Virus record (IMG/VR): IMGVR_UViG_3300032030_000040
Coordinates: 1 to 64,000 of that record
DNA: 64,000 bases
DNA from: a virus
Taxonomy: Duplodnaviria; Caudoviricetes
Strand: one strand, 5' to 3'
Below, one piece after another: positions 3,328 through 28,293 of the stretch (within the stretch, counting starts at the first letter, position 1; each line of letters begins with the position of its first letter). The translations under genes and the position numbers were made by a program. Below the pieces are notes generated by a model, which saw only the letters and a list, made by a program, of their open reading frames with translations, was not told where the DNA came from and ran no database searches.

Positions 3328-3427
3328 TTGTATATTTGATAAATTTTAGGCTAAAAATTTGTATATTTGATAAACTTTTCGTACCTTTGTCGTAGCAAAT
3401 AAGATAAACGTTTCAAAACAAGACATT
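3328..3427 (+). promoter_or_regulatory. Bacteroidetes-type promoter with ATATTTGATAAA operator-like box (two copies) and conserved leader
   Basis: TTTG 3358-3361, 20-nt spacer, TACCTTTG 3382-3389; GCAAATAAGATAA 3395-3407, then TTCAAAAC, then ATG 3428. Confidence 0.85.
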
Positions 3428-4471: not shown

Positions 4472-4834
4472 ATGGGAACAAGAACAATTATCAATCAGTG
4501 CTCAGGCTCTATAAATATGAACGGCAAGGAGTACAAAAACATCAAGGGCACCATCGAGATTACGGACAGCGGAATCTTTGTTGATGGCAAGCCTATTGAG
4601 GAATACAAGGAACCGCCTGTATTCAAGATAGTCATCGAGGGCAGTGTGGAAACCATCGAGAGCGAAAACGCTGATGTGGAGGTCAAGGGCACTGTCACCA
4701 CCGTCAACTCAAAGAACGGAAACGTCACCTGTAGCAAGGTGCTGGGTAATGTCGAGACGAAGAACGGCAATGTCATGTGTGGCAGTGTTGGTGGAGAGGT
4801 AACGACAAAGAACGGAAACATAATGAGAGGATAG
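4472..4834 (+). CDS. beta-strand-repeat protein
   Basis: Repeated V-x-[ST]-KNGN-V units. Confidence 0.6.
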   Translation: MGTRTIINQCSGSINMNGKEYKNIKGTIEITDSGIFVDGKPIEEYKEPPVFKIVIEGSVETIESENADVEVKGTVTTVNSKNGNVTCSKVLGNVETKNGNVMCGSVGGEVTTKNGNIMRG

Positions 4835-4836
4835 CT

Positions 4837-5721
4837 ATGGAAGTGAATAATGAAATACTGGCCGAACTGAACGGCAAGGCACTTTACTCACCCAAGGGCG
4901 CAGCCCTCGAATATGCCGCCGTAGGCTGTAACTTTTACAAGGGCTGTCCCCATTCATGCGAGTACTGCTACCTGAAACGTGGTGTGCTGTCCCATGAGCT
5001 GGGCAGTACAGAGGTGAAGCTGAAAGCCTGTTTCAAGGATGAGATTCATGCAATGAAGGTATTCGTGAAGGAGCTGGAGGCCGACCTTGACTACATCAGG
5101 CAGACTGGTGTATTCTTCTCGTTCTCTACCGACCCAATGATAGATGAGACCAGAGACCTTACTTTGTCCGCAGTGATTGAATGTCTCGCTCACGGTGTGC
5201 CAGTGAAGATACTTACGAAAAACGCCTCATTCCTCAGTGACAAGAAGTTTGTCGATTTCGTGGACGGACTTGATGCAGACGTTCGTAGGAATGTTGCCTT
5301 TGGCTTTACGCTTACAGGCAGGGATGACATGGAACCACATGCTTCGCCAAACTACGAGCGCATACATACAATGAAACTCCTTCATCAGTTGAGCTTCAGG
5401 ACTTTTGCCAGCATCGAGCCGATTATTGACTTTGACAGTTCTTTCAGGATGATTCAGGATTCGGCTCTGTTCTGTGACCATTTCAAGATTGGCTTGCGAT
5501 CAGGCGTGAAGGATGACTACTACAATCCAGATGAGTGCGCATACTTTGTTGGCAAGGTGACAGGACTATGTGAACAGAGCAACTTCACTGTGTACTGGAA
5601 AGAGTCGATGCACAAGTATGTACGGAAGCACATGGCCAAGGACAATTTCGAGGTTGCCCTGTCAAGCAGTAATCATTTCGTGGATATGGACTATGACATT
5701 TTCAAGGAGGGCAGCGTATGA
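4837..5721 (+). CDS. radical SAM protein
   Basis: CxxxCxxC motif (GCPHSCEYCY), FSTDP, ILTKN, ASIEPI. ATG 4837 preferred as start. Confidence 0.85.
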   Translation: MEVNNEILAELNGKALYSPKGAALEYAAVGCNFYKGCPHSCEYCYLKRGVLSHELGSTEVKLKACFKDEIHAMKVFVKELEADLDYIRQTGVFFSFSTDPMIDETRDLTLSAVIECLAHGVPVKILTKNASFLSDKKFVDFVDGLDADVRRNVAFGFTLTGRDDMEPHASPNYERIHTMKLLHQLSFRTFASIEPIIDFDSSFRMIQDSALFCDHFKIGLRSGVKDDYYNPDECAYFVGKVTGLCEQSNFTVYWKESMHKYVRKHMAKDNFEVALSSSNHFVDMDYDIFKEGSV

Positions 5722-6785
5722 ATATCGAGCTAATTCCTTTGGGGCTTCCTCATGAAGAGAAGCAGCCAATAGTTATTGCAGGGCCTTGCTCTGCAGAGAG
5801 TGAAGTACAGGTAATGGAAACGGCCAAGCAGCTATACTTCAAGGGCTGTTCCATCTTCCGCGCAGGGGTATGGAAGCCGAGGACGAAGCCTGGCTGTTTT
5901 GAAGGCTGTGGCAAAGAAGCCCTTCCTTGGCTCAAGAAGGTAAGGGAAGAAACGGGGATGCAGGTAGCCATCGAGGTCGCCACTCCTGAGCACGTAGATT
6001 TGGCTCTGGCTCACCATATAGACATTCTCTGGATAGGTGCGAGAACTACCGCAAACCCGTTTGCCGTGCAAGCACTGGCAGATGCCATGAAGGGTATCGA
6101 GGTTCCCGTGTTGGTCAAGAATCCCGTGAACCCAGACCTTGAACTGTGGATTGGAGCCTTTGAACGTCTTGCAAGAGCCAACGTCCGGCGTTTGGGAGCC
6201 ATTCACAGAGGTTTCTCATCCTACGAGAACAAGCTGTATCGCAATGCCCCTATGTGGCAGATACCGATAGAGCTTCGCAGACGTATGCCAGACCTCCCCA
6301 TTCTGTGTGACCCGAGTCACATGGGAGGCAAGCGAGACCTTATAGCACCTATCAGCCAGCAGGCACTTGACATGGGCTTTGACGGTCTTTTCGTGGAGTC
6401 CCACTACAAGCCAGACACGGCGCTCAGTGATTCAGGACAGCAGATAACACCTGCCATCCTGAGCTATATCCTGTCACAGCTGACTGTCAGGAGCAAGACG
6501 TGGGGCAATGGTGGTCTCGGTGAGCTCCGCAGCCAGATAGACGAGATTGACACACAGCTGATAGAGCTGCTGGCCAAGCGCATGAAGATATGTCGGGAGG
6601 TCGGAGAGTTCAAGCGGAAGCGTGGCGTTCCTGTCTATCAGACGAAACGCTATGGTGAAATGATGGATAAGCGTGAGATAAACGGACAGCTGAACGGACT
6701 GAGAAAGGATTTCATTACTCACATATTCAGTCTTATCCATGAAGAGAGCGTAAGTGAACAAATTCAAATAGTAAATCAGAAATAA
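5718..6785 (+). CDS. bifunctional DAHP synthase / chorismate mutase (AroQ-type C-terminal domain)
   Basis: IAGPCSAES, RAGVWKPRT, WIGARTT, LCDPSH; C-terminal LRSQIDEIDTQLIELLAKRMKICREVGEFK...QTKR chorismate mutase domain. Confidence 0.93.
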   Translation: MNIELIPLGLPHEEKQPIVIAGPCSAESEVQVMETAKQLYFKGCSIFRAGVWKPRTKPGCFEGCGKEALPWLKKVREETGMQVAIEVATPEHVDLALAHHIDILWIGARTTANPFAVQALADAMKGIEVPVLVKNPVNPDLELWIGAFERLARANVRRLGAIHRGFSSYENKLYRNAPMWQIPIELRRRMPDLPILCDPSHMGGKRDLIAPISQQALDMGFDGLFVESHYKPDTALSDSGQQITPAILSYILSQLTVRSKTWGNGGLGELRSQIDEIDTQLIELLAKRMKICREVGEFKRKRGVPVYQTKRYGEMMDKREINGQLNGLRKDFITHIFSLIHEESVSEQIQIVNQK

Positions 6786-6786
6786 T

Positions 6787-7062
6787 ATGGAAAGGTCAGA
6801 AGTAAGAAAGAAAATTATTGAGTTTGCAGACAACAATGTCGGCATTGATGAATCCCTGAGTGACGAGCAGAAGGAGCAGCTGAGAATCGTTGAAGACCTC
6901 GGTGGCGACAGTCTTGATATGCTTGAGATAATCATGGATACAGAAAGGGAGTATGATATTACTGTCACAGACGAGGAAGGCAAAAGGTTGTTTGCTGACG
7001 ATCCGACTATTGGGGAAATCGTTGACTTCATGATGCAGAAGATATCTGAGCAGACTGAGTAA
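6787..7062 (+). CDS. acyl carrier protein
   Basis: Acidic 91 aa with DLGGDSLDMLEII phosphopantetheine-site motif and TIGEIVDF. Confidence 0.85.
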   Translation: MERSEVRKKIIEFADNNVGIDESLSDEQKEQLRIVEDLGGDSLDMLEIIMDTEREYDITVTDEEGKRLFADDPTIGEIVDFMMQKISEQTE

Positions 7063-7226
7063 TGGAGAAATCCAAGATATGCTGTGATGTGAAATGCGGA
7101 GTCCGTCTTGAGTGCGCTCTGTTCTCCCTGGCTCTTGATGTCAATTCGGGAAAGAACATCGGCGAGTACGATATTGTTCCAGCTGGCGAGTGTCACGGGA
7201 AATTCTATGAGAAGGCCAAGAAATAA
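7062..7226 (+). CDS. small Cys-rich protein (54 aa, not in ORF track)
   Basis: TAATG overlap with ACP; MEKSKICCDVKCGVRLEC...ECHGKFYEKAKK. Confidence 0.5.
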   Translation: MEKSKICCDVKCGVRLECALFSLALDVNSGKNIGEYDIVPAGECHGKFYEKAKK

Positions 7227-7237
7227 ACTCAGGGAGT

Positions 7238-7471
7238 ATGAAAATAGAGAATCTTGATACAGCCGTAAGGTATAAGGAACGAAGGGAGAATCTGCTGAAG
7301 GTGAAGTCACTGATAGAGAGGAATCCCTCTTCTGTCGTAGTGGAGTTGCACGAAAGCCGCCATGATGGTACCAAGAGTGAGAAAGTCCAAGACGACTGTC
7401 TCACTGGCATCATCCACAAATATTGCGAGGACACCCTCGCCTTGATTGATAAGGCTATCGAGCAGCTATGA
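7238..7471 (+). CDS. hypothetical protein
   Basis: Operon packing with ATGA overlap. Confidence 0.6.
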   Translation: MKIENLDTAVRYKERRENLLKVKSLIERNPSSVVVELHESRHDGTKSEKVQDDCLTGIIHKYCEDTLALIDKAIEQL

Positions 7472-8103
7472 GTATTCGCAAGAAGAGACGCAAGAAGGTC
7501 TGCCCCTGCTGTGGCCGTAAGCTATGGCTGAGAGACTTCTACAAGGACAGGTCTGGCAATATATCCACCTACTGCAAGGAGTGTGTGAAGGCCAAGAAAC
7601 GTGCTGAGTACGCTGCTGGCAGGAAGAAACCAGACGGTATCAGGATGGACTTTGCCACTGGCCGTGTCTATGAGAAGAACGGACTGAGCAAGCGGATATT
7701 CTGGAATAAGCAGATGTGCGATGACCTCAGACGACTCTATCCTACAACCAAGAACGACGAGCTTGCAGGATTGTTCGGTGTCAGTGTCCGCACCATGATA
7801 CGAAAGGCACGGGAGCTGGGCGTGGAGAAAGACAAGGACTGGATGCACGGCACCGTCATGAGCCACTTGAAGATGGCAAAGATGGAGTCGGACAGGCTTG
7901 GAAGGCCAGGCGGTTTCCCAAAGGGTGTTCACAGCAATCCCGACGGAGAGTTCAAGAAGGGACGTGTGGAAACGCCAGAGCAGAAGGAAAGGCGTGTTGC
8001 AGGTATGCTGGAGTATAACAGGAAGCATCCCGACAAGCTCAGGGAACGTGCAAAAAAGGCATGGGTGACAAGAAGAGAAAACCAAAATTTGAATATAGTA
8101 TGA
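7468..8103 (+). CDS. Zn-ribbon + HTH basic DNA-binding protein
   Basis: CPCC...YCKEC; NDELAGLFGVSVRTMIRKARELG HTH; FPKG/FKKG repeats. Confidence 0.65.
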   Translation: MSIRKKRRKKVCPCCGRKLWLRDFYKDRSGNISTYCKECVKAKKRAEYAAGRKKPDGIRMDFATGRVYEKNGLSKRIFWNKQMCDDLRRLYPTTKNDELAGLFGVSVRTMIRKARELGVEKDKDWMHGTVMSHLKMAKMESDRLGRPGGFPKGVHSNPDGEFKKGRVETPEQKERRVAGMLEYNRKHPDKLRERAKKAWVTRRENQNLNIV

Positions 8104-8209
8104 AACCAAACAACAAACCAATGGCCACCGTGAGTGACCGAAACAATGATTACCAGAACGACTGCTTTGTAGTTGACTGGGCGTGTACAAACAATAAAAT
8201 TGAAAAGTT

Positions 8210-8395
8210 ATGATTATCAAAGGAATTGCAGTTGCTATCCTGTGCATCATTATCGTGGGCCAGTGGATAGTCGGAGTGAGAGGCAACAGAAAAGAAGGCC
8301 TCGGGTGTATGATGAACGTCCTGATGACACTCTGGACGTTGATGCTGTTTGCTCTTCTGTATTTTGCAGGGTGCTTTGATTTCTCAGGTCAGTAA
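8210..8395 (+). CDS. small membrane protein (2 TM)
   Basis: Two hydrophobic segments in 61 aa. Confidence 0.5.
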   Translation: MIIKGIAVAILCIIIVGQWIVGVRGNRKEGLGCMMNVLMTLWTLMLFALLYFAGCFDFSGQ

Positions 8396-8411
8396 CAAAA
8401 CTTTCGGGACA

Positions 8412-8822
8412 ATGGAAAAACAAGAAGAGAAGCTAATCGAGGGGATTCTGGGTAAGGAGTTCCTTGCTGCAGCCAAGGAGTATGGCGCAAAGATGAAGTT
8501 GGCCGTAGGCGCTCAGGGTGCGAGTCCGAAGATTCAGGAGGCTATGGAGCGCCTGGCATCAGTGGCATTTGCCAAAGGTGGAGAACATCTGAAGAGCGTC
8601 ATGTGGACTGAGCTGGCAAAGAGATATCCCAAGCTCAATACATGGGTATTATGCAAGGGAGAGTCTGGCCGTATGTTCATGGCAAAGGTAGTGAAGGCTG
8701 GTGCTGGCAGTCTGAGGTTCCAAGACTACGACGGGGGAAAGACAGAGAAGGTGACTCACTGGATGGTCGTTCCTGAAATCGAAGAACAAGTGAAAGAAGC
8801 AAAAGAGGTGGCCATGAATTGA
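8412..8822 (+). CDS. DUF551-like phage protein
   Basis: W....RYP....VL...VTHWMVVPE motif; ATG 8412 preferred. Confidence 0.6.
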   Translation: MEKQEEKLIEGILGKEFLAAAKEYGAKMKLAVGAQGASPKIQEAMERLASVAFAKGGEHLKSVMWTELAKRYPKLNTWVLCKGESGRMFMAKVVKAGAGSLRFQDYDGGKTEKVTHWMVVPEIEEQVKEAKEVAMN

Positions 8823-8835
8823 GCCACCCCTTTTT
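8801..8835. terminator. bidirectional intrinsic terminator (better on the - strand)
   Basis: AAAAGAGGTGGC-10nt-GCCACCCCTTTTT. One stem position is G-U on the - strand but A-C on the + strand. Confidence 0.75.
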
Positions 8836-8957
8836 ACAAACAGAAGGTCCTACTCTCCCGAGCAAGACCGTTCCTATGCAAATAAGATAAATACCATTCA
8901 AAACTAAAACAATGATACCCGTGAAGGGCAAGATTGGTTAGATTAAATGTATCTATC
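8801..8957 (-). ncRNA. predicted ~155-nt antisense sRNA complementary to the shared operon leader
   Basis: Own promoter (8965-8995, -), hairpins with G-U pairs and a GGGA loop on the - strand, unstructured segment complementary to GCAAATAAGATAA...TTCAAAAC...ATG, and a terminator. Confidence 0.6.
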
Positions 8958-8964
8958 CGTAATG

Positions 8965-8995
8965 CAAAGGTACAATTTTTTATCGAATTTGCAAA
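8965..8995 (-). promoter_or_regulatory. leftward Bacteroidetes-type promoter
   Basis: On - strand: TTTG-CAAATTCGATAAAAAATTG(19 nt)-TACCTTTG. Confidence 0.75.
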
Positions 8996-9007
8996 ATTTT
9001 GAGTGAA

Positions 9008-9029
9008 ATTTGATAAAAAGTTATCAAAT
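9008..9029. promoter_or_regulatory. palindromic operator ATTTGATAA-N4-TTATCAAAT between divergent promoters
   Basis: Perfect 9-bp inverted repeat whose half-site is the box embedded in the seven repeated promoters. Confidence 0.7.
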
Positions 9030-9030
9030 A

Positions 9031-9062
9031 TTTGGCAATTTCCGTAGAAATGATTATTTTTG
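9031..9062 (+). promoter_or_regulatory. promoter of the tandem-HTH gene
   Basis: TTTG 9031-9034, 20-nt spacer, TATTTTTG 9055-9062. Confidence 0.7.
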
Positions 9063-9082
9063 CAAGGTAATAATTTGGAACT

Positions 9083-9487
9083 ATGATAAGAGAACGTATT
9101 TATCAGCAGATGTTGAAGCGTGGAGTGAACCAGACAACGCTCTGCAATGACCTCTGTCTGCAGGTGTCTAATTTCAATGCCTTCATCCGTGGCAACAGGT
9201 CTATGCCATTCAAGGACCTTGTGGCCGTGATGAAGTATCTTCGCCTGTCGGTAGCACCGAAAGGGACGGAGTTCACCAGTACGCCTCCGGAGAACATCAA
9301 CGAGATTTTCAGGAACCGCATCAAGCAGGGTGGCTTGAAGCTGGTGGAGGTGGAAGCTGCCTCCGGCATCAACAGAACAAGTATCTCCAGTATCATTACT
9401 GGAAAGCACGTCACGTCATCGAGGAACCTTGGGAAGCTCATGCAGGCTCTTGGTCTCGAAATCGTGCCGTTCAAGGCAACAGTTTAA
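9083..9487 (+). CDS. transcriptional regulator with two tandem XRE/Cro-like HTH domains (candidate repressor)
   Basis: GVNQTTLCNDL.LQVSNFNAFIRG and GLKLVEVEAASGINRTSISSIITG...LGKLMQALGL. Confidence 0.8.
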   Translation: MIRERIYQQMLKRGVNQTTLCNDLCLQVSNFNAFIRGNRSMPFKDLVAVMKYLRLSVAPKGTEFTSTPPENINEIFRNRIKQGGLKLVEVEAASGINRTSISSIITGKHVTSSRNLGKLMQALGLEIVPFKATV

Positions 9488-9504
9488 TTCAAAACAATAT
9501 CAGG

Positions 9505-10179
9505 ATGGAAATAGTAAGAAAGAAACTTGACGAGCTTATTCCAGCTGACTACAATCCAAGAAAGGATCTGCAGGAAGCCGATAAGGAATACCAGGACATC
9601 AAGAGTGGTATTCTGGAATACGGTCTTGTCATTCCGCTTATCATGAACAAGCGGACGGGCAACCTTGTGAATGGCCATCAGAGGCTAAAGGTGCTGAAAG
9701 ACCTCGGCTGGACTGAGGTAGAGGTCAGTATCGTGGATATGGACGAGAAGAAGGAGAAAGCCCTGAATCTCGCACTCAGTCGTATTGACGGTGACTTTGA
9801 CAACAAGGCACTGACAACTGTCATGGCAGAAGTCCGTGCTGCTGGCATCGACCCGATGACTCTTGGCTTCACGAAGTCAGAGGTTGAGAAGATGTTCCCA
9901 GCGCAGATGCAGGCTGAGAACCTGTTCGGTGACGACAAGGACAATCCCTTCAAGGACTTTGACAACAAGCCAGAGGAAACGGAGGTTGTCGCCATGGTCG
10001 GGAAGTACCGCTTCAGCATGGATAAGAGCAAGATGGAGGAAGTCATGGGTGATATCCGCTACCGCAATGGCTTTGTGAAGGAGAGTGTGGAGAAAGAAAT
10101 CAAGCTGAGATTATTCTATGGGAAAGAATGGGAAAAGCACCTCGCAGACGATGACGTTTCGGACGCTGAAGGTAAGTGA
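9505..10179 (+). CDS. ParB/Srx N-terminal domain protein
   Basis: PADYNPRK, LVNGHQRLKVL, EKALNLAL. Confidence 0.85.
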   Translation: MEIVRKKLDELIPADYNPRKDLQEADKEYQDIKSGILEYGLVIPLIMNKRTGNLVNGHQRLKVLKDLGWTEVEVSIVDMDEKKEKALNLALSRIDGDFDNKALTTVMAEVRAAGIDPMTLGFTKSEVEKMFPAQMQAENLFGDDKDNPFKDFDNKPEETEVVAMVGKYRFSMDKSKMEEVMGDIRYRNGFVKESVEKEIKLRLFYGKEWEKHLADDDVSDAEGK

Positions 10180-10768
10180 GATAGAAGAGGCCTTCTACAA
10201 TCCCCGTAAGGTGATGAAGAAAGGCAGTAAGAAATACGACAACCTCAAGAGCTCTCTGGAGGATTTCGGCTATGTCGAGCCTCTGGTGGTCAACGAGGTC
10301 AACAACCGCCTTATCTCTGGTCACCAGCGTTTGAACGTCTTGCGTGACATGGGGCAGGAAGAGGTGGAGGTGTCTATCGTCCATATTGAGGAAGAGGCAA
10401 GGGAGAAGGCCCTGAATATCCTGTTGAACAAAGTCAAGGGAAAGTGGGATAAGACCAAACTGGCCGATGTTCTCAAGTCCATTGGTGACGAGTACAATGC
10501 CCTTGACCTCGGATTCGAGGAAGGAGATATCGCAGAGTTCCTGAAGAACGATGACGATCTGGGCGTTGACGGAGCCAAGGCTGACGAAATGGATTCCGGC
10601 ATCAAGCTAAGGAAGGATGCAGCAGCCGTGGTTGTCGCCATTGCTGGTGTCCGTTTCAATATCCCAGCCCCAGAGTTTGCGGAGCTGGAGAAGGGGCTGA
10701 TAGAGCAGGGCTTCTTCAGTGAGAAGGAAATGAGTGAAGAACTTAAAAATAGATTTATTGCCGAATGA
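10118..10768 (+). CDS. ParB/Srx N-terminal domain protein (paralog; start may be ATG 10151)
   Basis: AFYNPRK, FGYVEPLVVN, ISGHQRL, EKALNILLNK. Confidence 0.85.
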   Translation: MGKNGKSTSQTMTFRTLKVSEIEEAFYNPRKVMKKGSKKYDNLKSSLEDFGYVEPLVVNEVNNRLISGHQRLNVLRDMGQEEVEVSIVHIEEEAREKALNILLNKVKGKWDKTKLADVLKSIGDEYNALDLGFEEGDIAEFLKNDDDLGVDGAKADEMDSGIKLRKDAAAVVVAIAGVRFNIPAPEFAELEKGLIEQGFFSEKEMSEELKNRFIAE

Positions 10769-12297
10769 TACAGATGGTAGCGCTGGATAAAATCCATGCA
10801 TCGACTTACAACCCACGAAAGTCAGACCCCAAGCGTCTTGACCTATTGGAGCTTTCCTTGCGGAAGCTCGGTTTCGTTTCTCCTATCGTCGTGGACCAGG
10901 GAGGCGAGATAATCTCTGGCCACCAGCGTAGCTTCGTGGCTTCAAGGATGGGTGTGAAGAGGGTACCTATCACCATTATCCCACGAATGACCCTTGATGA
11001 GCGTAAGAGTCTCAACATCGTGTTCAACCGTGCCACCAATGACCTGAAGCGCAGCGACACTTGCCAGACGGTAAAGGAGTATATCAGCAAGTATGACGTT
11101 GAAGCAATCGCCTCGGAGTTGCCAGACCTCACTCCAGATACTCCAGAGTTCTATCCGTGTATGTACACAAAGACTGGTGACAGTTTCGAGCTGTTGAAGA
11201 AGAACGCCGGAAAGGTAAACCAGTACGCTACGAATATGTACGGGAGCCTGGCACGAAAGAAGATTGAGCTGCCTACTGTCGTGGATGAGGAAGACAATGT
11301 GGTGAATGGAATCGGACGTGTCTGCTACTATGCCCAGCACAATGTCCGTCCTATTCCCATCTGCAGAATAACCAAAGCTCAGGCACAGTTCGCCAACCTC
11401 ATGCTGAACTACCTGACCATGGACTTCGATATCCAGAACCGTTATGCCGACACCCTCCGTCACAATTCCTTCATGAGAACGAGGAACACCCGTGCAGGAG
11501 GTCTTGGCTGTGGCTTCTACAAGGGACTGTGGCCACGCCTGAAATGTGTTGATACAATGATACTGGAAGGCCAGAAGAAGGATGAGTGGGTAGGACGTTT
11601 CGGTGACAGCATCGTTGACTTCGGTGCTGGAAAGCTCAACAACACCCGAATACTCAGGGAGAGCGGAATCCAGTGCTCTGCCTTTGAGCCGTACTTCATA
11701 GCCACTGGAGAGGAAATCAGCAAGACGGAGAGCTTGAAGATAGACCGCAAGTTCCTCGAAGAGATAGCGGACGGGCGCAAGTTCACCGCCATCTTCATTT
11801 CCTCTGTGTTCAACTCAGTACCCTTCATGGCTGACCGCATGGCCATTGCGACCATCTGTTCCGCACTGTCAAGCCCTGATACGATATGCGTATGCTGGAC
11901 TCAGGGTGTGAATGTCGGTAACAATGCCGCCATTTCAAGTAACGTGCAGAGCAAGACCGCCGCAGGTCAGATAACCTTCAATATTGACTACGAGCCGAAT
12001 GTGGTTCTGGGTGACTTCTCCAAGCTGCCGAAGGTGCAGAAGTACCATACCAACCGTGAGATATTCGATATCTTCAATCCTGTGTACGGCGATATCTACC
12101 GCCTTGACACCATTGACGGATATGTGTATATGGAGGCACGGGGCACCAGACTTGACGTGAACAATGCCGAGTACATGGAAAGGTTGCGCAAGGCCATAGA
12201 ATTTGAGTTTGACCTTCCCTATCCTGACGGAACCCGTGCAGGACTGGTTGACGAGGCCAAGGCTGCTTTCAGCAAACGTTTAGGAGTGCAGATTTGA
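10765..12297 (+). CDS. ParB-domain protein fused to a class I SAM-dependent transferase fold
   Basis: YNPRK...ISGHQR, a second degenerate ParB unit (VVNGIGR), and C-terminal IVDFGAGK, AFEPY, IFISSVFNSVPF. Confidence 0.75.
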   Translation: MIQMVALDKIHASTYNPRKSDPKRLDLLELSLRKLGFVSPIVVDQGGEIISGHQRSFVASRMGVKRVPITIIPRMTLDERKSLNIVFNRATNDLKRSDTCQTVKEYISKYDVEAIASELPDLTPDTPEFYPCMYTKTGDSFELLKKNAGKVNQYATNMYGSLARKKIELPTVVDEEDNVVNGIGRVCYYAQHNVRPIPICRITKAQAQFANLMLNYLTMDFDIQNRYADTLRHNSFMRTRNTRAGGLGCGFYKGLWPRLKCVDTMILEGQKKDEWVGRFGDSIVDFGAGKLNNTRILRESGIQCSAFEPYFIATGEEISKTESLKIDRKFLEEIADGRKFTAIFISSVFNSVPFMADRMAIATICSALSSPDTICVCWTQGVNVGNNAAISSNVQSKTAAGQITFNIDYEPNVVLGDFSKLPKVQKYHTNREIFDIFNPVYGDIYRLDTIDGYVYMEARGTRLDVNNAEYMERLRKAIEFEFDLPYPDGTRAGLVDEAKAAFSKRLGVQI

Positions 12298-12349
12298 TAA
12301 ATTATTCTCTCTGAAAATTTGTATATTTGATAAATTTTTTGTACCTTTG
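12292..12349 (+). promoter_or_regulatory. repeated promoter with ATATTTGATAAA box but without the conserved leader
   Basis: TTTG 12318-12321, 20-nt spacer, TACCTTTG 12342-12349; extra TTTGATAA at 12293-12300. Confidence 0.8.
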
Positions 12350-12382
12350 TAGAAGGAAAAATATAAAAATTGGAATATCAAA

Positions 12383-12877
12383 ATGAAAGATAGAATAATT
12401 CTGTTGGATTTGAACTACACGCTGGTAAGCAACCAGGAAAAGACTCGTATGATACGGCCTTTCTCTTCCCGTCTCAGGGCAGAGGAATACCGTAAGGACT
12501 TAATTGAGGCCATCAAGGAGAACCCCGTCATCATCATCACGGCCAGACCGTCATATCAGGGGCGGGAGTCTCTGGAGAACATTCAGAGGAAGACACGCTG
12601 GAACCCGATGGAGGCGTACTTCAATGACCTCAACCTCGATCCGCCTTCAATCAAAGAGAGCATCCTGGAGCGTTTCGTCTTTCCCAAGCACGGAAATGAC
12701 GGGAAGCTGTATTTTGCCGTGGAGAGCAATCCGAGAACGAGGGCTATGTATTACCGTCACGGAATCCCTGCGGAACCCTATGACAAGTTCATCCAGCGGT
12801 TCCCAGAGATTGTGTTGCGGATGACTAAAGACCCTGCACAGTTAGAATTATTCACAGATGAAACCGAATCAAAATAA
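12383..12877 (+). CDS. HAD-superfamily-like protein with variant motifs
   Basis: ILLDLNYTL (DxN), IITARP, AVESNP. Confidence 0.6.
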   Translation: MKDRIILLDLNYTLVSNQEKTRMIRPFSSRLRAEEYRKDLIEAIKENPVIIITARPSYQGRESLENIQRKTRWNPMEAYFNDLNLDPPSIKESILERFVFPKHGNDGKLYFAVESNPRTRAMYYRHGIPAEPYDKFIQRFPEIVLRMTKDPAQLELFTDETESK

Positions 12878-13607
12878 GAGTAAAGGCGAGAAAGGACAGG
12901 ACAATTATATCCCCACCCAGAAATGGGAGTTCAATAAAGAGGTGACAGACGTATTCCCCAATATGCTGTCTCGCTCCATCCCTGGCTATGACAGTATGCG
13001 AGAGCTCGTTTACCGCATGGCCAGAAACTTCGTGAAGGAAGGGACCAACGTCCTTGATATCGGTTGCTCCACTGGTATCTCGTCTGAGCTGCTAATCAAG
13101 AACTTTGGAGCCAAGTGTAACTTCGTCCTGACCGACGTAAGCGAGCCGATGATTGAGAAGTGCCGTGAGAAGTACGCCACTGAGATAAAGGACGGCTATG
13201 TAAACGTGAAGTACAGCGACCTTCGGGAGAAGCTGCCCGTAAAAGGCTGTTCCGTTATCCTGTCCTGCCTGACCATCCAGTTCACCCCTATTGAATACCG
13301 CCAGTTCATCTTCAAGAACATCTTCGAGTCCTTGGAGCCTGGCGGAGCCCTCATACTGGTGGAGAAGGTCATGGGAAACAGTGACGATATAGACCAAGTG
13401 CTTGTGAAGGAATACTATGATATCAAGCGTGACAACCAGTACACCGAGGAACAGATAAAGACCAAGCGCCGTAGTCTGGAGGGTTCACTGGTACCGCTGA
13501 CCATCAACATGAACGAGCAGCTGCTGAACATCAGTGGCTTCAGAAAGGTAGATACGTTCTGGAGATATCTGAACTTCGTGGCCCTCATAGCGATAAAGGA
13601 GAGATAG
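12858..13607 (+). CDS. cmoA: CmoA-like carboxy-S-adenosylmethionine synthase
   Basis: WEFNKEVTDVFPNMLSRSIPGY, VLDIGCSTG, LTIQF, LEPGGALILVEK, KRDNQYTEEQIKTKRRSLE and YLNF parallel E. coli CmoA along the full length, including the KR arginine. Confidence 0.85.
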   Translation: MKPNQNKSKGEKGQDNYIPTQKWEFNKEVTDVFPNMLSRSIPGYDSMRELVYRMARNFVKEGTNVLDIGCSTGISSELLIKNFGAKCNFVLTDVSEPMIEKCREKYATEIKDGYVNVKYSDLREKLPVKGCSVILSCLTIQFTPIEYRQFIFKNIFESLEPGGALILVEKVMGNSDDIDQVLVKEYYDIKRDNQYTEEQIKTKRRSLEGSLVPLTINMNEQLLNISGFRKVDTFWRYLNFVALIAIKER

Positions 13608-13610
13608 CCT

Positions 13611-14177
13611 ATGCCAGCACCAAAAGGAAACCAGTACTACAAGTTGGCAAAGGAAGCCCTTGGGCGCCCCCGTACCATCCCCACTGCCGAAGAGTTCACC
13701 GAAAGGTTCTTGGAATATGTGGCATGGAGCGAGGACAACCCCATCCTTGCCAAAAGGGCCTCACGAAGAGAAGGAGGGACAACGGTCAATGGAACCGCCA
13801 AAGACCCAGAGACCCGTCTGGACTCAGAATCAAAGCGCCGCCCACTCTCCATGTATGGCTTCTGTGCCTACCTCGGAGTGAGCAGGAAATGGTTTGAAAT
13901 GAGGCTCAAGATGCTGGAGGAAAAGGGCGATGAACGTACCGAAGAGGAAGAAGATTATTTTACCGCCATGTCACGCGCGAAGAGCATCATTGAAATGCAG
14001 CAGTACGACGGTGCCAGTGTTGGCGACTTCAACGCCACCCTTACCATGAGGGCGCTGGGACTTGGTGACAAGGTGGATATGACCAGCGACGGTGCGCCCA
14101 TACAGACTGCATTACCAATCATTAACATAATGAGAGACGAACGCTGTGCAGAAACAGGTGGACGTGAAGCTGAATGA
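13611..14177 (+). CDS. terminase small subunit (P22 gp3-like)
   Basis: MPAPKGNQY...GRPR, RPLSMYGFCAYLGV, QQYDGASVGDFNA; precedes the large subunit. Confidence 0.85.
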   Translation: MPAPKGNQYYKLAKEALGRPRTIPTAEEFTERFLEYVAWSEDNPILAKRASRREGGTTVNGTAKDPETRLDSESKRRPLSMYGFCAYLGVSRKWFEMRLKMLEEKGDERTEEEEDYFTAMSRAKSIIEMQQYDGASVGDFNATLTMRALGLGDKVDMTSDGAPIQTALPIINIMRDERCAETGGREAE

Positions 14178-15513
14178 CAAGCAGTTCGAGGCATATGACA
14201 TTCTTACCGACATGGATAACGGTGTCACAGAACTGTTATACGGAGGCGGCGCACGAGGCGGAAAAAGCTGGCTGGGCTGCTTCTGGCAGATAACCAATCG
14301 CCTGAAATATCCTAAATCCGTCGGCTTCATCTGCCGAGAGCAGCTTATCCAGCTCATGGATACCACCTTCAAGACCTTCCTTGAGGTGCTGGACTTCCTC
14401 GGACTGACACAGCAGGTCGTGTACAAAGGCGGCATGGTCAACAGCTTCTTCTTCCCGAATGGCTCGATGATTTACTTCCGCTCAGTGCAGTACAAGCCCA
14501 GAGACCCGAACTTCGACCGCTTCGGTTCGTACAGCATCACGGACCTGTTCGTGGATGAGAGTCAGGAGATAGCGGAGAAAGCCATCAACGTGCTCAGGGC
14601 TCGTTTCTCCCTGCTGGAAGGCCCGAACCCAGACGGTACGAAATGGCACGTCATCCCGAAGTCCATGTATAGCTGTAACCCTTCAAGGGGCTGGAACTAC
14701 ACCCAGTTCGTGAAACCAGCCAAGGACGGGACTCTTGCACCATTCAGGCGTTTCATCAAGGCTCTGCCGAAGGACAACCCGTATATCACTCAGGACTACA
14801 TCGACAACCTGTTACGCTCTGATAAGATAACCATCCAGCGACTCTACTACGGAAACTTCGAGTACGATGACGATCCGGCTTCGCTGATAGACTACGACGC
14901 ACTTGTTGACCTTTTCCACAACGAGCATATCCAGCAGGTGGGAGGTCGCAGCTGCTCAGCCGATATCGCAACAAAGGGACGTGACCGATTCGTTGCAGGC
15001 TCATGGATAGGGAATGTGTGCACCATCCGCATAGACAAGGAATACTCACCGTCGAAGGAGGTGCAGGAGGACTTGAAACAGCTGATGATAAAGGACTCCA
15101 TACCAAGGACGCTGACAGTGGTGGATGCCGACGGCGTAGGCTCGTTCCTGGAGTCGTACCTTGACGGTATCAAGGAGTTCCACGGAGGCGGTAAACCGCA
15201 AGACCCCCGTTATCAGAATCTCAGGGCTGAGTGTTACTTCAAGCTGGCAGAGCTGATAAACGCCAGAAGGATAAGGGTCATCTGTACCGATGAGCAGCGA
15301 GAGCGAATCATTGACGAGCTGGGCGCACTCAAGCAGGCACATATCGACAATGACGTTGGCAAGAAGGACGTCATCAAAAAAGACGAGTGGAAGACCCTGC
15401 TGGGTGGCAAATCCCCTGACTATTCGGATATGTTGATGATGGCCATGATATTCAGACGAGGCAAGGCAACGGCAGGCGCACAGGCCTCAGTGAAGATACG
15501 CAGTAATGAATGA
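14146..15513 (+). CDS. terminase large subunit
   Basis: Walker A YGGGARGGKS, Walker B LFVDESQE, SCNP, DNPY, nuclease ADIATKGRD and SPDYSD. Confidence 0.93.
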   Translation: MQKQVDVKLNDKQFEAYDILTDMDNGVTELLYGGGARGGKSWLGCFWQITNRLKYPKSVGFICREQLIQLMDTTFKTFLEVLDFLGLTQQVVYKGGMVNSFFFPNGSMIYFRSVQYKPRDPNFDRFGSYSITDLFVDESQEIAEKAINVLRARFSLLEGPNPDGTKWHVIPKSMYSCNPSRGWNYTQFVKPAKDGTLAPFRRFIKALPKDNPYITQDYIDNLLRSDKITIQRLYYGNFEYDDDPASLIDYDALVDLFHNEHIQQVGGRSCSADIATKGRDRFVAGSWIGNVCTIRIDKEYSPSKEVQEDLKQLMIKDSIPRTLTVVDADGVGSFLESYLDGIKEFHGGGKPQDPRYQNLRAECYFKLAELINARRIRVICTDEQRERIIDELGALKQAHIDNDVGKKDVIKKDEWKTLLGGKSPDYSDMLMMAMIFRRGKATAGAQASVKIRSNE

Positions 15514-18267: not shown

Positions 18268-18392
18268 AGACAGCTTTTATTATCGCCGGAATACTGTTGC
18301 TCCTTTTTGTGGCATATATCCTCATCAGAATTGTGCTTATCGCTATCATCGTCTATGCAGACACCCTAAAACGTAAAGGTCTCAGAAAATGA
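18264..18392 (+). CDS. 42-aa single-pass membrane protein (not in ORF track)
   Basis: MKTAFIIAGILLLLFVAYILIRIVLIAIIVYADTLKRKGLRK; ATGA overlaps with both neighbours. Confidence 0.55.
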   Translation: MKTAFIIAGILLLLFVAYILIRIVLIAIIVYADTLKRKGLRK

Positions 18393-21300
18393 AGGAAGAG
18401 CTATACATCTATACGCCTGACGGGTCGAGGGAACTTCTTGACCTTCCAGTGCCGAGTGGCATAACGCTGAAATGGGTAAACAACCTGTTCAGCGATATTA
18501 GCAAGCTGACGTGTTCGCACAGCTACACGTTCAAGCTGCCGTTCACCCAGAGGAATATCCGTTTGCTGGATTTGGCCAACGATATCCGTCATCACTCGAA
18601 GATGATACGCAAGCGTGTGGATGCGGACTTCTACATCAATGGCGTGTGCCTTTGTCCCAATGCCAACCTGTACGTCTCAGAGGTCGGCGACAAGACTTTC
18701 AGCTGTGTGCTGACTTGGAGGGTACTCAAGGCCTTCGAGACTTTGAAGAGTTCAGGCATAACCCTCAACCAGCTCCCGTCACTCGGGCGTTTTATCTGGA
18801 GAGACGATGATGACGAGTTCCAGTACGGGGGCCTTTCAAACAAGCTGGGTAACATGGACGATATCCTGTACCCAGACTATGATGCTGGCATCCCCCATGA
18901 GACGGGAACACCGCCGAAGCCCGTGGTACCCGTGTACCGTCTGATACAGATGATAAATGAGAAGTTTGGCGTGAAGTTCGAGATAGGCAGGCAGATATCA
19001 CGGGGCATGGGACTGCTGCCGCTGGCCAACTTCAATAACAAGGACTACTATGGCCGTGCCGTATATGATGACTACGTGACCTATGGTGTCGTGCCTATCA
19101 CGGGAACGAAGCCGTTCCTCTCTGAGAGGTACGTGGCCAAGGAAATCAACCTCATAAACCTTTCCTATGCGATACAGGACGGCTCTTTCCAGCAGGAAGG
19201 TAGCTTCCGAAAGTTCACCAGCAGGGAGGATGACAAGAAATACTGGAGGGAATACGAGAACTGGCGCGACATCAATGTGAGCAAGCGCCACTATTGGGGA
19301 GGAATCGCCACCTTGAACGGAAACAGGAACGATACCGTTGTCGTGCCTTACTGGAATGAGTTCATCGGCTCTGACCGTCTGAGGACGTCAAGCAGGGAAA
19401 CGGCCTGCTCGGAGATAAAGGTGCAAGAGCTGAATATGTGGAAGTCGTGGTCTCAGGGCGGCTATTACTCTGGACGCTATGACGGCAAGGACGTGTGCTA
19501 TGCCAAGCGTACCGTCGAGGGGTATATGCTGACAGGAGGCAACAAGTACCCTAACGATCTGGTCACGCTGAAGCTGGAGGCTCAGTGTGAGATACGTGGT
19601 ACCGCCACCGTAGTCGTTAAGAAGTCCGCTGTTCAGGAAGGCCGTGTGCCTGACCGTGAGTACTGGTGGATATACCTTGTTGAAGCGACGAAGGATGAGA
19701 ACGATGAAGTGTCTCTCGATACCAAGTCAGACGATGGTGACGACTGGATAGGCCTGCGTTCCATCAGCAGGGAAGAGACGGCAACGGAATACATCTATCA
19801 TTTCGACTTTGGCGTAGAGTACGAAGCCAGACGCCTGAATGTGGAAGCCATCGAGGAAGGTTCCCTTGGCTACCTGTTCTGGTCCGGCTATGAGTACACC
19901 CCACCCGAGGACACCACCAGAGACCTGCAGACCATCTACGACGATGAGGGCAATGAACTGCCTGATACCCTCGTTGCAGGCTATGACAACGTAAACTGGC
20001 CGGAAGTGGACTTCACGGATAGGTTCAATGCCGATGACGTCCGTTTCGGGTTCCTGAAGATTGCCAGCATTACCCCGTCTCTGGAGGCCATCACGAAGAT
20101 TCCAGTCGAAATGAACATCACCGAGAATCTTCCGCCAATCAACTGCTTCGACTTCATCAAGGACGTGTTCTACATGAACGGAGCCCTTCCCCGTGTCGAG
20201 AAGGACGGTAAGACCATCGTGGCCATGTACTACAACCAGCTCCGTGACAGGATGCTGTCTGGCGACTGCCTTGACTGGTCTGACAAGCTGCTGAGCGGAA
20301 AGACTCAGGCAGACCTATCGAAATACGAGAATACTAACTTCGGCCAGAAGAATTACTTTGAAATGGCCTACAGCCGACGCAGCAAGACCGAAGAGGAAAA
20401 GCGTGACGAGCTGGAGCTGTACGGAGAGGGCTACGGGACGGTAGGCATAGAGGACTCCCTGCTTGCAGAGGGAAAGTCCCTCTATCAGTCGAAGTTCTTC
20501 CCTGGCTTGCGTCAGGATATCGCCTATCCGAATGTCGTTACAGGCAGGACCATCAAGACGTGGGACGGTGAGAAGCACGTCGTGACGACCACCAACCCGT
20601 TATATGGCATCATGAACTACAGAGCCCTTGACCCGACATTTGAGGAAACGAAGGATATCAGCAAGCGCCCGATGTTGAAGAGCAAGGGGGTGGACTTCAA
20701 GCATATCCGCATGAACGCCTTCGAGCCGTTTGAGAACATCGACAGGCTCTTCGGCTACCTCGGTTCCATACTGGAGAACTACACTTGCGTCAAGGAGAAG
20801 ATGATGCTGACCGAGTTTGACCTTAGAGACTTCAATGAGTCCGTGCCTGTGTATCTGCACAAGTACAATGCTTTCTTCGCCGTGAGCAGCATCCAGAGAG
20901 ACAAGGCTGGCGTGTGTACGGTGGAGCTGGTGGCTCTTCCCTATGTCAAGCCGACATACGAACAGGGCGAGAGCACGGACGTAGAGACGGTGAGCTTTGA
21001 GCACGCCCTGAAAAGCGGCTTCCTGTCGTTCACCCTCAACTTGAAGAGGACATACACATCGAATCCGTGTCCGCTGGTCTTTGACCTGTACGTGAACAAT
21101 CAGAATGAGGGATGGAGTACCAGCGGAAACACCCTCAGCGAACCGTACTTCTATACGGACAATGCAGGCCATCAGGACGGCAGGTGTTACCTGTCTCAGT
21201 GGGTAAGCCCGTACAACGATTCATGGGACGGGAACCCCTATACGCTGAAACTCTATGTCGCTGAGAAGGTGCGCTACACCATCAAGAAGATTGTGGGCTT

Positions 21301-28059: not shown

Positions 28060-28293
28060 ATGACACGATTTGAACTACTGAAAGCAAACAAGACGTTGAT
28101 CGAGACGTTAGTAGAGAACTCTATTGATGTGAAGGACATCGAATACCTCAAGCTCGTAGAGGAATTTAAGGACCTGAAAGCCAAGCACCACAAGGTGGGC
28201 TATATCGTCTGTCACCTCAGCGAGAAGTACGGGAAGAGCGAGAGAGGTATCTACAAGATTATCGACAGGATGACAAAGCGTGTGAAGCTATGA
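28060..28293 (+). CDS. small HTH protein, Mor/C-activator-like
   Basis: C-terminal LSEKYGKSERGIYKII HTH. Confidence 0.55.
   Translation: MTRFELLKANKTLIETLVENSIDVKDIEYLKLVEEFKDLKAKHHKVGYIVCHLSEKYGKSERGIYKIIDRMTKRVKL

Follow-up and report, generated by a model that had tools for sequence, protein, structure and literature searches.

A rumen Bacteroidales phage cassette that joins a CmoA-like protein to a ParB-fused transferase may direct carboxy-SAM-based modification of nucleic acid

We propose that a region next to the terminase genes of a rumen Bacteroidales phage holds a module for nucleic-acid modification that relies on carboxy-SAM and brings its own source of the precursor, a reading to which we assign a probability of about one half, and that the phage DNA is probably marked by a route unlike that of the one published system. 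The stretch of DNA analysed (the window) covers the first 64 kb of a phage genome that is complete, measures 97.9 kb (97,912 bases) and has terminal repeats; a 95%-identical copy of the phage lies on a contig that was assigned to the bin of a rumen Bacteroidales MAG. The cassette comprises, in this order, two short ParB genes, a gene for a ParB-fused class I transferase (ParBX), a HAD-like gene and a CmoA-like gene, followed by the terminase genes; a bifunctional DAHP synthase-chorismate mutase (DAHPS-CM) is encoded upstream. An earlier reading of the window, made from the letters alone (the sequence-only reading), had named these genes, and all were confirmed as open frames with family matches; the coordinates below refer to the window and its + strand. 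The interpretation it had offered is partly supported, and the comparative evidence favours both links that it had drawn, that of ParBX to carboxy-SAM and that of DAHPS-CM to prephenate.

The CmoA-like protein (12858..13607, 249 aa) is likely a carboxy-SAM synthase that uses SAM and prephenate. Its best family is CmoA TIGR00740 (167.3 bits, E 4.6e-49, 226 of 239 model positions), with a score that lies below the curated cut-off; even so, it outscores the validated phage enzyme SpCmoA (PMC12783734), for which this model gives only 115.6 bits. Across its full length the protein can be aligned with the E. coli CmoA structure 4gek (E 8e-37). It retains Y44, D67, G69, S71, D93, D121 and F142, and most ligand-binding residues are kept, whereas Asn132 of the E. 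coli enzyme is replaced by Cys. Residues K203-R204 align with K198-R199 of E. coli CmoA, in agreement with the sequence-only reading, which had described a full-length gene keeping the arginine of this pair. However, Arg199 is conserved neither in all CmoA homologues of the cassette nor in SpCmoA, and hence is a weak marker. As that reading also had it, the gene sits just before the terminase: the small subunit gene (13611..14177) follows and, together with the large subunit gene (14146..15513), a conserved neighbour, forms the downstream boundary of the cassette (GP3_package, 44 bits; phrog_606; PBSX-type terminase match).

In E. coli, CmoA and CmoB constitute the tRNA cmo5U pathway, in which CmoB is a class I transferase that selects carboxy-SAM by contacting its carboxylate through Lys, Tyr and Arg (PMC3663124, PMC4482062), and binds it ∼500-fold tighter than SAM (PMC4482062). 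Unlike in E. coli, no CmoB was found in the window, as had been noted before, or in the whole genome, and no tRNA genes were found in the phage. The MAG with the near-identical phage contig belongs to a family from which 101 genomes were sampled; CmoB was found in none of them and the CmoA cut-off was reached in none. The likely host lineage appears not to make carboxy-SAM, a rare cofactor.

ParBX (10765..12297, 510 aa; phrog_5475, E 3e-106) has more than 800 homologues, and in Pfam it matches ParB_N and, weakly, Methyltransf_23. The motifs DFGAG (residues 285-289) and SSVFNSVP (346-353) were present exactly as previously quoted, and in an alignment of 43 homologues every one of their columns is either invariant or conserved to at least 90%. 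D285-F-G-A288 and E308 are invariant, and throughout the segment 346-354 conservation is complete or no lower than 90%. The protein begins with a ParB/Srx domain (∼1-110); a class I SAM-transferase fold occupies residues ∼220-465, and the C-terminal part is helical. We read the stretch ∼130-215 as a putative second ParB-like region, since it carries an invariant N-G-x-G-R motif. In the AlphaFold2 model (pLDDT 89), residues 1-89 resemble sulfiredoxin and KorB (Z ∼10), and the transferase fold matches class I methyltransferases with Z of 12-13. Its closest folds are small-molecule and tRNA methyltransferases (e.g. METTL6 and Trm9), none of which stands out as the best; the listed fold matches include no DNA methyltransferase, so that the fold gives no pointer to DNA. 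CmoB family models did not match ParBX. The protein belongs neither to the C5-cytosine enzymes nor to the N6/N4 amino-methyltransferases, and its product is therefore probably not 5-carboxymethylcytosine.

The HAD-like and short ParB genes had previously been treated as by-standers, but they proved to be near-constant members of the cassette. Both short ParB proteins match ParB_N only in Pfam: protein 1 (9505..10179, 224 aa) scores 25.9 bits, just below the cut-off of 26.3, and protein 2 (10118..10768, 216 aa) scores 28.7 bits; its gene overlaps that of protein 1 by 62 nt and that of ParBX by 4 nt. PHROGs ParB families match these genes (E 1e-36), protein 1 belonging to phrog_620 (E 3e-37). 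Protein 1 carries no recognised DNA-binding domain, and its homologues hold the equivalent position in distant phages. The short ParB genes directly upstream of ParBX in cassette loci amount to 65 distinct sequences, in whose alignment the NPR and G..R columns are invariant. We propose that protein 1 is an accessory or activator of the transferase. A comparable short phage protein, ParB176, is required by the thymine dioxygenase 5mYOX176 for activity on double-stranded DNA (PMC13229309). Like ParB176, the present protein is short, has a nucleotide-binding N-domain and no obvious DNA-binding domain, and is encoded beside a candidate DNA-modifying enzyme; here, however, the enzyme is a SAM-type transferase rather than a dioxygenase, and there are up to four ParB-type domains per cassette. 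Phage DNA methyltransferases fused to ParB-N (phrog_498; CDD ParB_N_like_MT) are related known systems.

The HAD-like protein (12383..12877, 164 aa; phrog_32036, E 4e-56) has a capless HAD fold (model pLDDT 92) with an Asp-x-Asn variant of motif I; D9-L-N11-x-T13, T53-A-R-P, K91 and E114-S-N-P are invariant. Its fold is nearest to the 3′-phosphatase domain of polynucleotide kinase-phosphatases (T4 Pnkp phosphatase, Z 15.2 and 14.3; Pnkp1, Z 14.1), whereas generic HADs reach at most Z 12.2.

Dozens of phage contigs that are unrelated to one another have this set of genes, hence its grouping is far beyond chance, and it is a widespread mobile module. Among 80 IMG/VR viral loci found with ParBX, the CmoA-like gene was present in 78, the HAD-like gene in 75 and a C5 methyltransferase in one; most of the CmoA and HAD misses fell on short contigs in which the cassette runs into the contig end. 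A CmoA-like gene adjoined ParBX in all cultured-phage records with a full-length ParBX (14/14); cultured carriers of the cassette include Gordonia phage Evaa, Pseudomonas phages SM1 and PaMx31, and Aeromonas phage HJ05. The order of cassette and terminase is kept in distant phages, as ParB-ParB-ParBX-CmoA-terminase is found on a Lachnospiraceae genome contig (ParBX 48% and CmoA 45% identical) and on a second contig whose ParBX cluster is source-named 'Myoviridae sp.' (ParBX 48% identical).

A phage precedent for carboxy-SAM-dependent cytosine modification, mentioned in the sequence-only reading, does exist: in Synechococcus phage S-B43, CmoA-CmoX-CmoY makes 5-carboxymethylcytosine and its glycine amide, and the authors of that study report no candidates for N6-adenine or N4-cytosine carboxymethyltransferases with CmoA (PMC12783734). 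When 80 loci were recovered with CmoA as the query, 59 had a C5 methyltransferase of the CmoX type, 7 had ParBX, 14 had neither and none had both. Since the two types share none of these CmoA loci, it seems that ParBX takes the place of CmoX in using carboxy-SAM; our proposal that it is a carboxy-SAM-dependent transferase would fit both this exclusion and the 78/80 co-occurrence with CmoA. The present phage resembles S-B43 in having a CmoA homologue without CmoB, in the frequent ParB-N accessory genes and in the presumed logic, in which carboxy-SAM is made and its carboxymethyl group is then passed to DNA. It differs in that neither a C5 methyltransferase nor an asparagine-synthase-like ligase was found in its complete genome, that transfer is assigned to a candidate in which ParB domains are joined to a class I domain of Methyltransf_23 type, that the constant extra partner is a PNKP-like HAD protein instead of CmoY, and that a prephenate-supplying enzyme is encoded by the phage itself. 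Prephenate availability was listed as an open question by the authors of PMC12783734.

DAHPS-CM (5718..6785) comprises a type I-beta DAHP synthase core (residues 14-248) and an AroQ-type chorismate mutase (270-348), both above the Pfam cut-offs (DAHP_synth_1, 138 bits; CM_2, 84.6 bits). It shares this domain order and 64-66% full-length identity with chromosomal enzymes of Prevotellaceae (Prevotella/Segatella), which NCBI names bifunctional 3-deoxy-7-phosphoheptulonate synthase/chorismate mutase type II. Its metal, PEP and chorismate mutase residues are those invariant in 109 host sequences. Unlike the host enzymes, the phage copies fall on long branches, outside the clade of 78 host sequences in the tree, and several host-conserved positions are altered in all of them (e.g. 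W236L, T305P, G320E). We conclude that this is a host-derived auxiliary gene, and propose that it supplies prephenate to the CmoA-like enzyme.

Under the proposed scheme, DAHPS-CM would raise host shikimate flow and pull chorismate to prephenate, with the six intermediate steps supplied by the host. The CmoA-like enzyme would likely convert SAM and prephenate to carboxy-SAM, which the class I domain of ParBX may bind in order to transfer the carboxymethyl group to phage DNA, although the assignment of DNA as acceptor, and of the atom modified, is our inference. By analogy, the ParB/Srx domains of ParBX and the two short ParB paralogues would bring the enzyme to double-stranded DNA or activate it there, and the substrate of the HAD-like obligate partner may be a phosphate, on nucleic acid or on a nucleotide, that is tied to the reaction. 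From the position of the cassette immediately before the terminase genes, the mark is taken to be made on replicated DNA around packaging, where it would protect from host nucleases; an anti-restriction role is presumed.

The link from DAHPS-CM to the cassette is where the scheme meets its strongest competitor. DAHPS-CM could instead be an independent auxiliary metabolic gene serving aromatic amino acids or other shikimate output, with the cassette running on host prephenate; we consider this possible, if rather doubtful. The gene lies 6 kb upstream of the CmoA-like gene with unrelated genes between, reproduces the architecture of a host housekeeping enzyme without change, and is missing both in the close relative L005 and in ∼70 other cassette loci. 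It is therefore no core component of the module, and co-occurrence of the three genes, which the sequence-only reading had suggested as a check, holds for cmoA and ParBX but not for DAHPS-CM. In the window, L003 and L004 (= L092), it is flanked by genes with which it might work: one for a radical SAM protein (4777..5721; C57-x3-C61-x2-C64, a CxxxCxxC motif; distant match to the PA0069 family, NF033668, 42.8 bits, far under the cut-off) and, directly after it, one for an acyl-carrier-protein-like product with a DSL serine motif (6787..7062; TIGR00517, 44.2 bits, under the cut-off; PP-binding, 29.7 bits). In L093, too, a gene lies upstream of it, of 296 aa and without family call. L005 has a radical SAM homologue without DAHPS-CM. 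Against independence, DAHPS-CM abuts the cassette in the sister clade L006-L010, where neither flanking gene has a match. Furthermore, every recovered phage contig with DAHPS-CM and enough flank also has the cassette. Gene fusions bear on the same point: a CM_2::CmoA fusion occurs inside a ParBX-HAD-CmoA cassette on a 95-kb phage contig (ParBX 39% identical), and a CmoA::CM_1 fusion directly follows a DAHP synthase gene. Two non-homologous chorismate mutase folds are thus fused to CmoA homologues, and the prephenate link gains support from these gene arrangements, even though DAHPS-CM itself is not constant.

A different doubt concerns the acceptor. The carboxymethyl group might go to host tRNA or rRNA, to a packaging or ParB protein, or to a free nucleotide or small molecule, as the small-molecule and tRNA enzymes nearest to ParBX would allow. 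NUDIX fusions occur among the CmoA homologues, and other homologues adjoin nucleotide-metabolism genes in cultured phages (e.g. Afa-NA1, SM1), a hint that part of these systems may act at the level of nucleotides; the enzymes matched by the HAD-like fold also work on RNA ends. We nevertheless regard a non-DNA acceptor as unlikely, given the four methyltransferase-associated ParB/Srx domains of the cassette, its constant position beside the terminase genes, the mutual exclusion of ParBX and the proven DNA carboxymethyltransferase type as CmoA partners, and the lack of phage tRNA genes and of CmoB in the sampled host family. The polynucleotide 3′-phosphatase likeness of the HAD-like protein, and the fusion of other CmoA homologues to a C5 DNA methylase or UDG-superfamily domain, were also counted for DNA. 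Less probable still is that ParBX is an ordinary SAM methyltransferase and that CmoA serves mainly to deplete SAM in the host, or to produce carboxy-SAM that inhibits SAM-dependent host defences, with DAHPS-CM fuelling the drain. SAM depletion by phage CmoA was raised as an open possibility in PMC12783734, and a pure sink would also profit from precursor supply; but a sink would need no near-obligate link to one transferase and one HAD-like protein (78/80, 75/80), the clean swap between ParBX and CmoX would not be expected of it, and S-B43 demonstrably uses the cofactor for transfer (PMC12783734).

The phage genome also encodes a separate CcrM-like N6/N4 methyltransferase of ordinary type, which could be the true DNA modifier and was counted against the carboxy-SAM module. 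Directly upstream of the ParB genes lies a gene for an HTH_3 (Cro/C1-type) protein (9083..9487; Pfam HTH_3, 34.6 bits), with 70-86% identity in L003-L010 and no match in the other cassette loci, so that its conservation is limited to the phage clade of the window; it may be a regulator and not a core cassette part. Finally, one of the seven copies of repeat family D1 within the window (12291..12367, 69% identity to the reference copy) lies between the ParBX and HAD-like genes, and we read it as promoter-like on account of its Bacteroidota-type TTTG and TAnnTTTG elements, which follow the known Bacteroidota consensus.

The virus record is 97,912 bases long, carries direct terminal repeats and is rated complete; the window is its first 64 kb, and nearly all genes lie on the + strand. 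All the genes named in the sequence-only reading were recovered by profile and family matches at their coordinates. A DAHP synthase fused to an AroQ chorismate mutase (DAHPS-CM; 5718-6785, + strand; Pfam, 138 and 84.6 bits, each domain over its cut-off) precedes a cassette on the same strand, in which two short ParB-N proteins, ParB1 (9505-10179) and ParB2 (10118-10768), both identified by PF02195 (ParB_N) and PHROGs, are followed by the 510-aa ParBX (10765-12297; a ParB-N domain and then a weak Methyltransf_23 match; phrog_5475, function unknown), a HAD-like protein (12383-12877; phrog_32036) and a CmoA-like protein (12858-13607; TIGR00740). The small and large terminase subunits, assigned by family matches, come next (13611-15513, + strand). 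No tRNA genes were found in the complete 97.9-kb genome, and megablast with 5718-13607 gave no match among 50,697 phage records. A repeat of about 77 nt is present in seven copies in the window (at 3331, 12291, 29540, 31119, 36004, 41466 and 42887), and from its Bacteroidota-typical TTTG and TAnnTTTG elements it is read as promoter-like. The copy at 12291 stands between ParBX and the HAD-CmoA-terminase genes.

The CmoA-like protein matched TIGR00740 with 167.3 bits (E 4.6e-49, model positions 14-239 of 239), below the equivalog cut-off of 193.3 bits. This cut-off is not a functional limit, because SpCmoA, a proven phage enzyme (PMC12783734), scores 115.6 bits on the same model. By its profile score, the window protein is filed as a phage-type CmoA homologue and not as a tRNA-pathway equivalog. 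The E. coli CmoA structure (4gek) was matched over its whole length with E 8e-37. In the E. coli enzyme the SAM-binding residues have been defined, and Arg199 forms a salt bridge to the cofactor carboxylate (PMC3663124). The window protein has R204 at the position of R199 and retains Y44, D67, G69, S71, D93, D121 and F142, and E. coli Asn132 and Asn90 are replaced by Cys137 and Val94. The arginine of the "KR" pair, which the sequence-only reading had pointed out, is present, but it is a weak marker, since the Arg199 column varies among the cassette CmoA homologues and in SpCmoA; it is the preceding Lys that is invariant. No HAD::CmoA fusion was found among 33 longer CmoA homologues, whose N-terminal extensions are mostly unrelated to one another and to the HAD-like protein.

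The first account of DNA modification by way of carboxy-SAM dates from December 2025 and has one transferase type, the C5-cytosine enzyme CmoX (PMC12783734). In that phage system CmoA makes carboxy-SAM, CmoX (a C5-cytosine methyltransferase homologue with an SPPC motif and Arg350) makes 5-carboxymethylcytosine, and CmoY, an amide ligase resembling asparagine synthase, forms the glycine amide; no adenine-N6 or cytosine-N4 carboxymethyltransferase candidates were found with CmoA (PMC12783734). The window shares with this system a phage CmoA homologue and ParB-N accessory genes, but CmoX and CmoY are missing from its complete genome: PF00145, which matched 12 of 14 reference genomes in a control search, found nothing in the 97.9 kb even at E up to 1, and PF00733 (asparagine synthase) had no match in the complete genome either. 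ParBX, the candidate transferase, differs in type from the C5 precedent, as had been proposed.

On ParB_N (cut-off 26.3 bits) ParB2 and ParBX scored 28.7 and 27.0 bits, and ParB1 25.9, just under the cut-off; the ParB proteins matched PHROGs ParB families at E 1e-22 to 1e-37. In the AlphaFold2 model of ParBX (pLDDT 89), residues 1-89 are predicted to resemble sulfiredoxin (Z 10.2) and KorB (Z 9.9, rmsd 1.8), and the G-H-Q-R motif of the ParB/Srx domain is invariant. The region at about 130-215, which has an invariant N-G-x-G-R motif, is read as a second ParB-like domain. Residues from about 220 to 465 have a class I transferase fold (3sm3, Z 12.9; METTL6, Z 12.7 over about 220-463), and D285-F-G-A-G289 (motif I) and E308 (the acidic residue after strand 2) are invariant in 43 ParBX homologues. 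The invariant K290, R358, K423 and K426 are candidate residues for a contact to the carboxylate of carboxy-SAM. The Methyltransf_23 match reached 25.7 bits against a cut-off of 27. When the full model was searched with Foldseek and VIA-align, many class I methyltransferases were tied at Z 10-13, with no clear best relative and no DNA methyltransferase among the matches listed; those at Z 12-13 included many small-molecule and tRNA methyltransferases. Against the sequences of solved structures, ParBX matched in its ParB domain only, whether used singly or as a profile, and the transferase part had no hit; an Atlas look-up of the transferase domain returned Methyltransf_23-type leads only. ParBX was not matched by the DNA amino-methyltransferase family PF01555, whose sole match in the genome (105 bits) is a separate CcrM-like N6/N4 enzyme at 28290-29042, the only classical DNA methyltransferase encoded there. 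As modelled, the fold does not reveal anything firm about substrate or acceptor. The N-S-V-P-F segment was considered as a variant of (S/N/D)PP(F/Y) and dropped, as it fits an ordinary post-strand-4 segment of the Methyltransf_11/23 type. A complex prediction for ParBX with the short ParB at 10118-10768 scored 0.01, which speaks neither for nor against an interaction. On double-stranded DNA, a phage DNA thymine dioxygenase is known to be activated by a short phage ParB (PMC13229309), and by analogy that system may offer a parallel for the short ParB genes of the cassette.

Homologues of ParBX, about 510-525 residues long, form more than 800 clusters, and the family is seen in phages of Bacteroidales, Lachnospiraceae, Pseudomonas, Aeromonas and Gordonia. 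On a Lachnospiraceae genome contig the order is ParB, ParB, ParBX and CmoA-like gene, and then putative packaging genes (portal, capsid); a contig with a ParBX cluster named "Myoviridae sp." by its source has the same order and then terminase and portal genes recognised by Pfam. ParBX of both contigs is 48% identical to the window copy, and the CmoA homologue of the Lachnospiraceae locus is 45% identical to that of the window and scores 174 bits on TIGR00740. Among cultured phages, Gordonia phage Evaa has ParB, ParBX, phosphatase, methyltransferase and terminase genes, and Aeromonas phage HJ05 and the Pseudomonas SM1/PaMx31 group are further carriers of the cassette.

In a sample of 80 IMG/VR loci fetched with the ParBX profile, a CmoA-like gene was present in 78, a HAD-like gene in 75 and a C5 methyltransferase in only one. 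The loci without a CmoA-like or HAD-like gene are mostly short contigs on which the cassette reaches the contig end. A short ParB gene (65 distinct sequences) lies immediately upstream of ParBX in this sample. Judged from these loci, the ParBX-CmoA cassette is a conserved mobile module. We then considered 80 viral loci obtained with a CmoA query, and hence not selected for ParBX. A C5 methyltransferase adjoined CmoA in 59 of them and ParBX in seven, both were present in none, and neither in 14. So clean a replacement would be expected if ParBX takes the role of CmoX, and this alternation is the strongest single argument for ParBX as a user of carboxy-SAM. ParB_N was also found upstream of the C5 methyltransferase in most of the CmoX-type loci.

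The 14 loci with neither ParBX nor a nearby C5 methyltransferase (within L096-L164) include some with long flanks (L109, L120, L125 and L143), and other acceptor enzymes may serve CmoA there. In the homologues P0172, P0219 and P0182, CmoA-like domains were found fused to NUDIX, a UDG-superfamily domain or a C5 DNA methylase, and in the cultured Alcaligenes phage Afa-NA1 CmoA adjoins NUDIX, dTMP kinase and thymidylate synthase genes. These fusions and neighbours are hints of further kinds of carboxy-SAM use.

Carboxy-SAM made by the phage could alternatively be passed to a host CmoB, as in the CmoA-CmoB tRNA cmo5U pathway, with which the cassette has a CmoA homologue in common. The CmoB of that pathway is missing here: PF08003 matches nothing in the window, as the sequence-only reading had noted, or in the complete phage genome, and TIGR00452 had no match in 101 genomes sampled from the family of the metagenome-assembled genome (MAG) that carries the phage contig. 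Given this lack of CmoB in the sampled genomes of what is the likely host family, it is unlikely that the cassette feeds a host CmoB. CmoA above the cut-off was likewise found in none of the 101 genomes, and there were three full-length sub-threshold CmoA matches, one of which is the phage contig itself. Two loci (L261 and L262, from genomes G101 and G039 of this family) have a full-length CmoA-like gene of about 164 bits, 32-33% identical to that of the window, with no ParBX or HAD-like gene within 1.5 kb.

The model of the HAD-like protein (pLDDT 92) was closest to 3′-phosphatase domains, those of T4 Pnkp (Z 15.2 and 14.3; for the former, 125 residues superposed at rmsd 2.3) and Pnkp1 (Z 14.1), as against at most 12.2 for generic HADs. 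Its family profile gave no meaningful match among solved structures. Motif I reads D9-L-N11-Y-T13, with the second Asp replaced by Asn invariantly in 21 homologues, so that the canonical DxDx(T/V) with both aspartates is not present. The model thus suggests a HAD-fold, PNKP-phosphatase-like protein of uncertain activity. The ends of nucleic acids are the substrates of its fold relatives, in keeping with a nucleic-acid target.

The source of prephenate for CmoA was raised as a question by the authors of PMC12783734, and DAHPS-CM had been proposed to supply it. The protein shares 64-66% identity with the bifunctional enzyme that Prevotella, Segatella and their relatives encode on the chromosome. 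Cys24, Lys53, Arg55, His201 and Glu227, and the chorismate mutase residues equivalent to E. coli R11, R28, K39, R51, S84 and Q88, are the same as in 109 host sequences; both activities are probably intact, since all catalytic residues that are invariant in the hosts are kept. The NCBIfam equivalog NF009239 scored 192.8 bits against a cut-off of 279. A tree of phage and host enzymes, built without an outgroup, has three groups and is compatible with one or several captures from hosts. Two oversized homologues (P0277 and P0279) were rejected as fusions, as they have internal duplications and are probably assembly artefacts. DAHPS-CM is flanked by a radical SAM gene (4777-5721; CxxxCxxC, distant PA0069-family match) and an ACP-like gene (6787-7062; DSL serine), a trio that is syntenic in some relatives and separable in others.

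By its distribution, DAHPS-CM does not belong to the core of the module: it is restricted to the phage clade of the window (59-86% identity), is missing in the close relative L005, and was not found within 10 kb of about 70 other cassettes. The expected co-occurrence holds for CmoA with ParBX and is confined to this clade for DAHPS-CM. The proposal of prephenate supply is nevertheless favoured by other loci. In the sister clade (L006-L010) the DAHPS-CM gene immediately adjoins the cassette; a 316-aa CM_2::CmoA fusion lies inside a cassette with ParBX (39% identical), HAD and CmoA on a 95-kb phage contig; and on a short contig a CmoA::CM_1 fusion, with the unrelated AroH fold (139.7 bits), comes immediately after a DAHP synthase gene. 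These three independent arrangements link chorismate mutase, with or without DAHP synthase, to phage-type CmoA. Viral contigs gave no match to the CM_2::CmoA fusion protein as query. Since two non-homologous chorismate mutase folds are fused to CmoA, there is good evidence from gene architecture that in some hosts the synthesis of carboxy-SAM is limited by the supply of prephenate. The phage encodes only the first committed and the last step, so the host would have to provide the six steps between.

These results indicate, at the level of gene linkage, that a second, unrelated transferase family partners phage CmoA. The observation behind the sequence-only reading is confirmed, and its interpretation as a carboxy-SAM pathway is partly supported, by the strong comparative evidence of the near-obligate linkage of CmoA and ParBX, the exclusive alternation with CmoX and the fusion proteins, whereas we infer that DNA would be the acceptor, carboxy-SAM the cofactor and anti-restriction the role. 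To the full reading we assign a probability of about 0.35. ParBX would then be the founder of a second family of natural DNA carboxymethyltransferases, widespread among phages of gut and rumen, and would act at a position other than C5 of cytosine, which could be a ring nitrogen, an exocyclic amine or an oxygen of another base, giving a DNA modification so far unseen in nature. In some phages DAHP synthase and chorismate mutase would divert host shikimate flow to the cofactor, and the PNKP-like HAD protein and the ParB/Srx domains would join in the chemistry itself, beyond DNA access. If this chemistry holds, it would reveal a new natural mark on DNA and provide a new enzyme scaffold with which carboxylate handles could be attached to DNA, and it would be an example of a phage that uses a host aromatic-pathway enzyme for cofactor synthesis. 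The prephenate-source question becomes testable with at least three chorismate mutase-CmoA arrangements, and the cultured phages (Evaa, HJ05, SM1/PaMx31) make experiments straightforward.

Metagenomes of 13 studies, from the gut of sheep, goat and bovine animals, contain the phage DNA. In a rumen Bacteroidales MAG, which has its own DAHPS-CM gene elsewhere, one of the binned contigs (134 kb) includes the first 20 kb of the phage at 95% identity. This contig (C1 of genome G001, locus L180; 134,199 bases) is 36 kb longer than the 97.9-kb record, and promoter-like repeats go on past the mapped genome start; either a concatemer assembly or a longer relative could account for this. The cassette is covered by contigs of metatranscriptome libraries from three ruminant-gut studies, which are not counted as expression, as transcription cannot be read from contigs and such libraries may hold DNA. 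The contigs of one run break at 12284/12332, at the promoter-like repeat, and a contig of another run bridges it.

Elsewhere in the genome, a 568-aa frame at position 80584 has a separate, strong canonical ParB_N match (80584-80874, 103 bits), and two adjacent, very long + strand open frames (18389-23713 and 23722-28038) encode 1774 and 1438 aa. The window also has a Prok-E2_D gene (823-1527) and a ThiF/E1-like gene (1524-2297), and in relatives PRTRC_E and Prok_Ub genes come before this pair, which together looks like a phage-borne PRTRC-type ubiquitin-like conjugation cassette.
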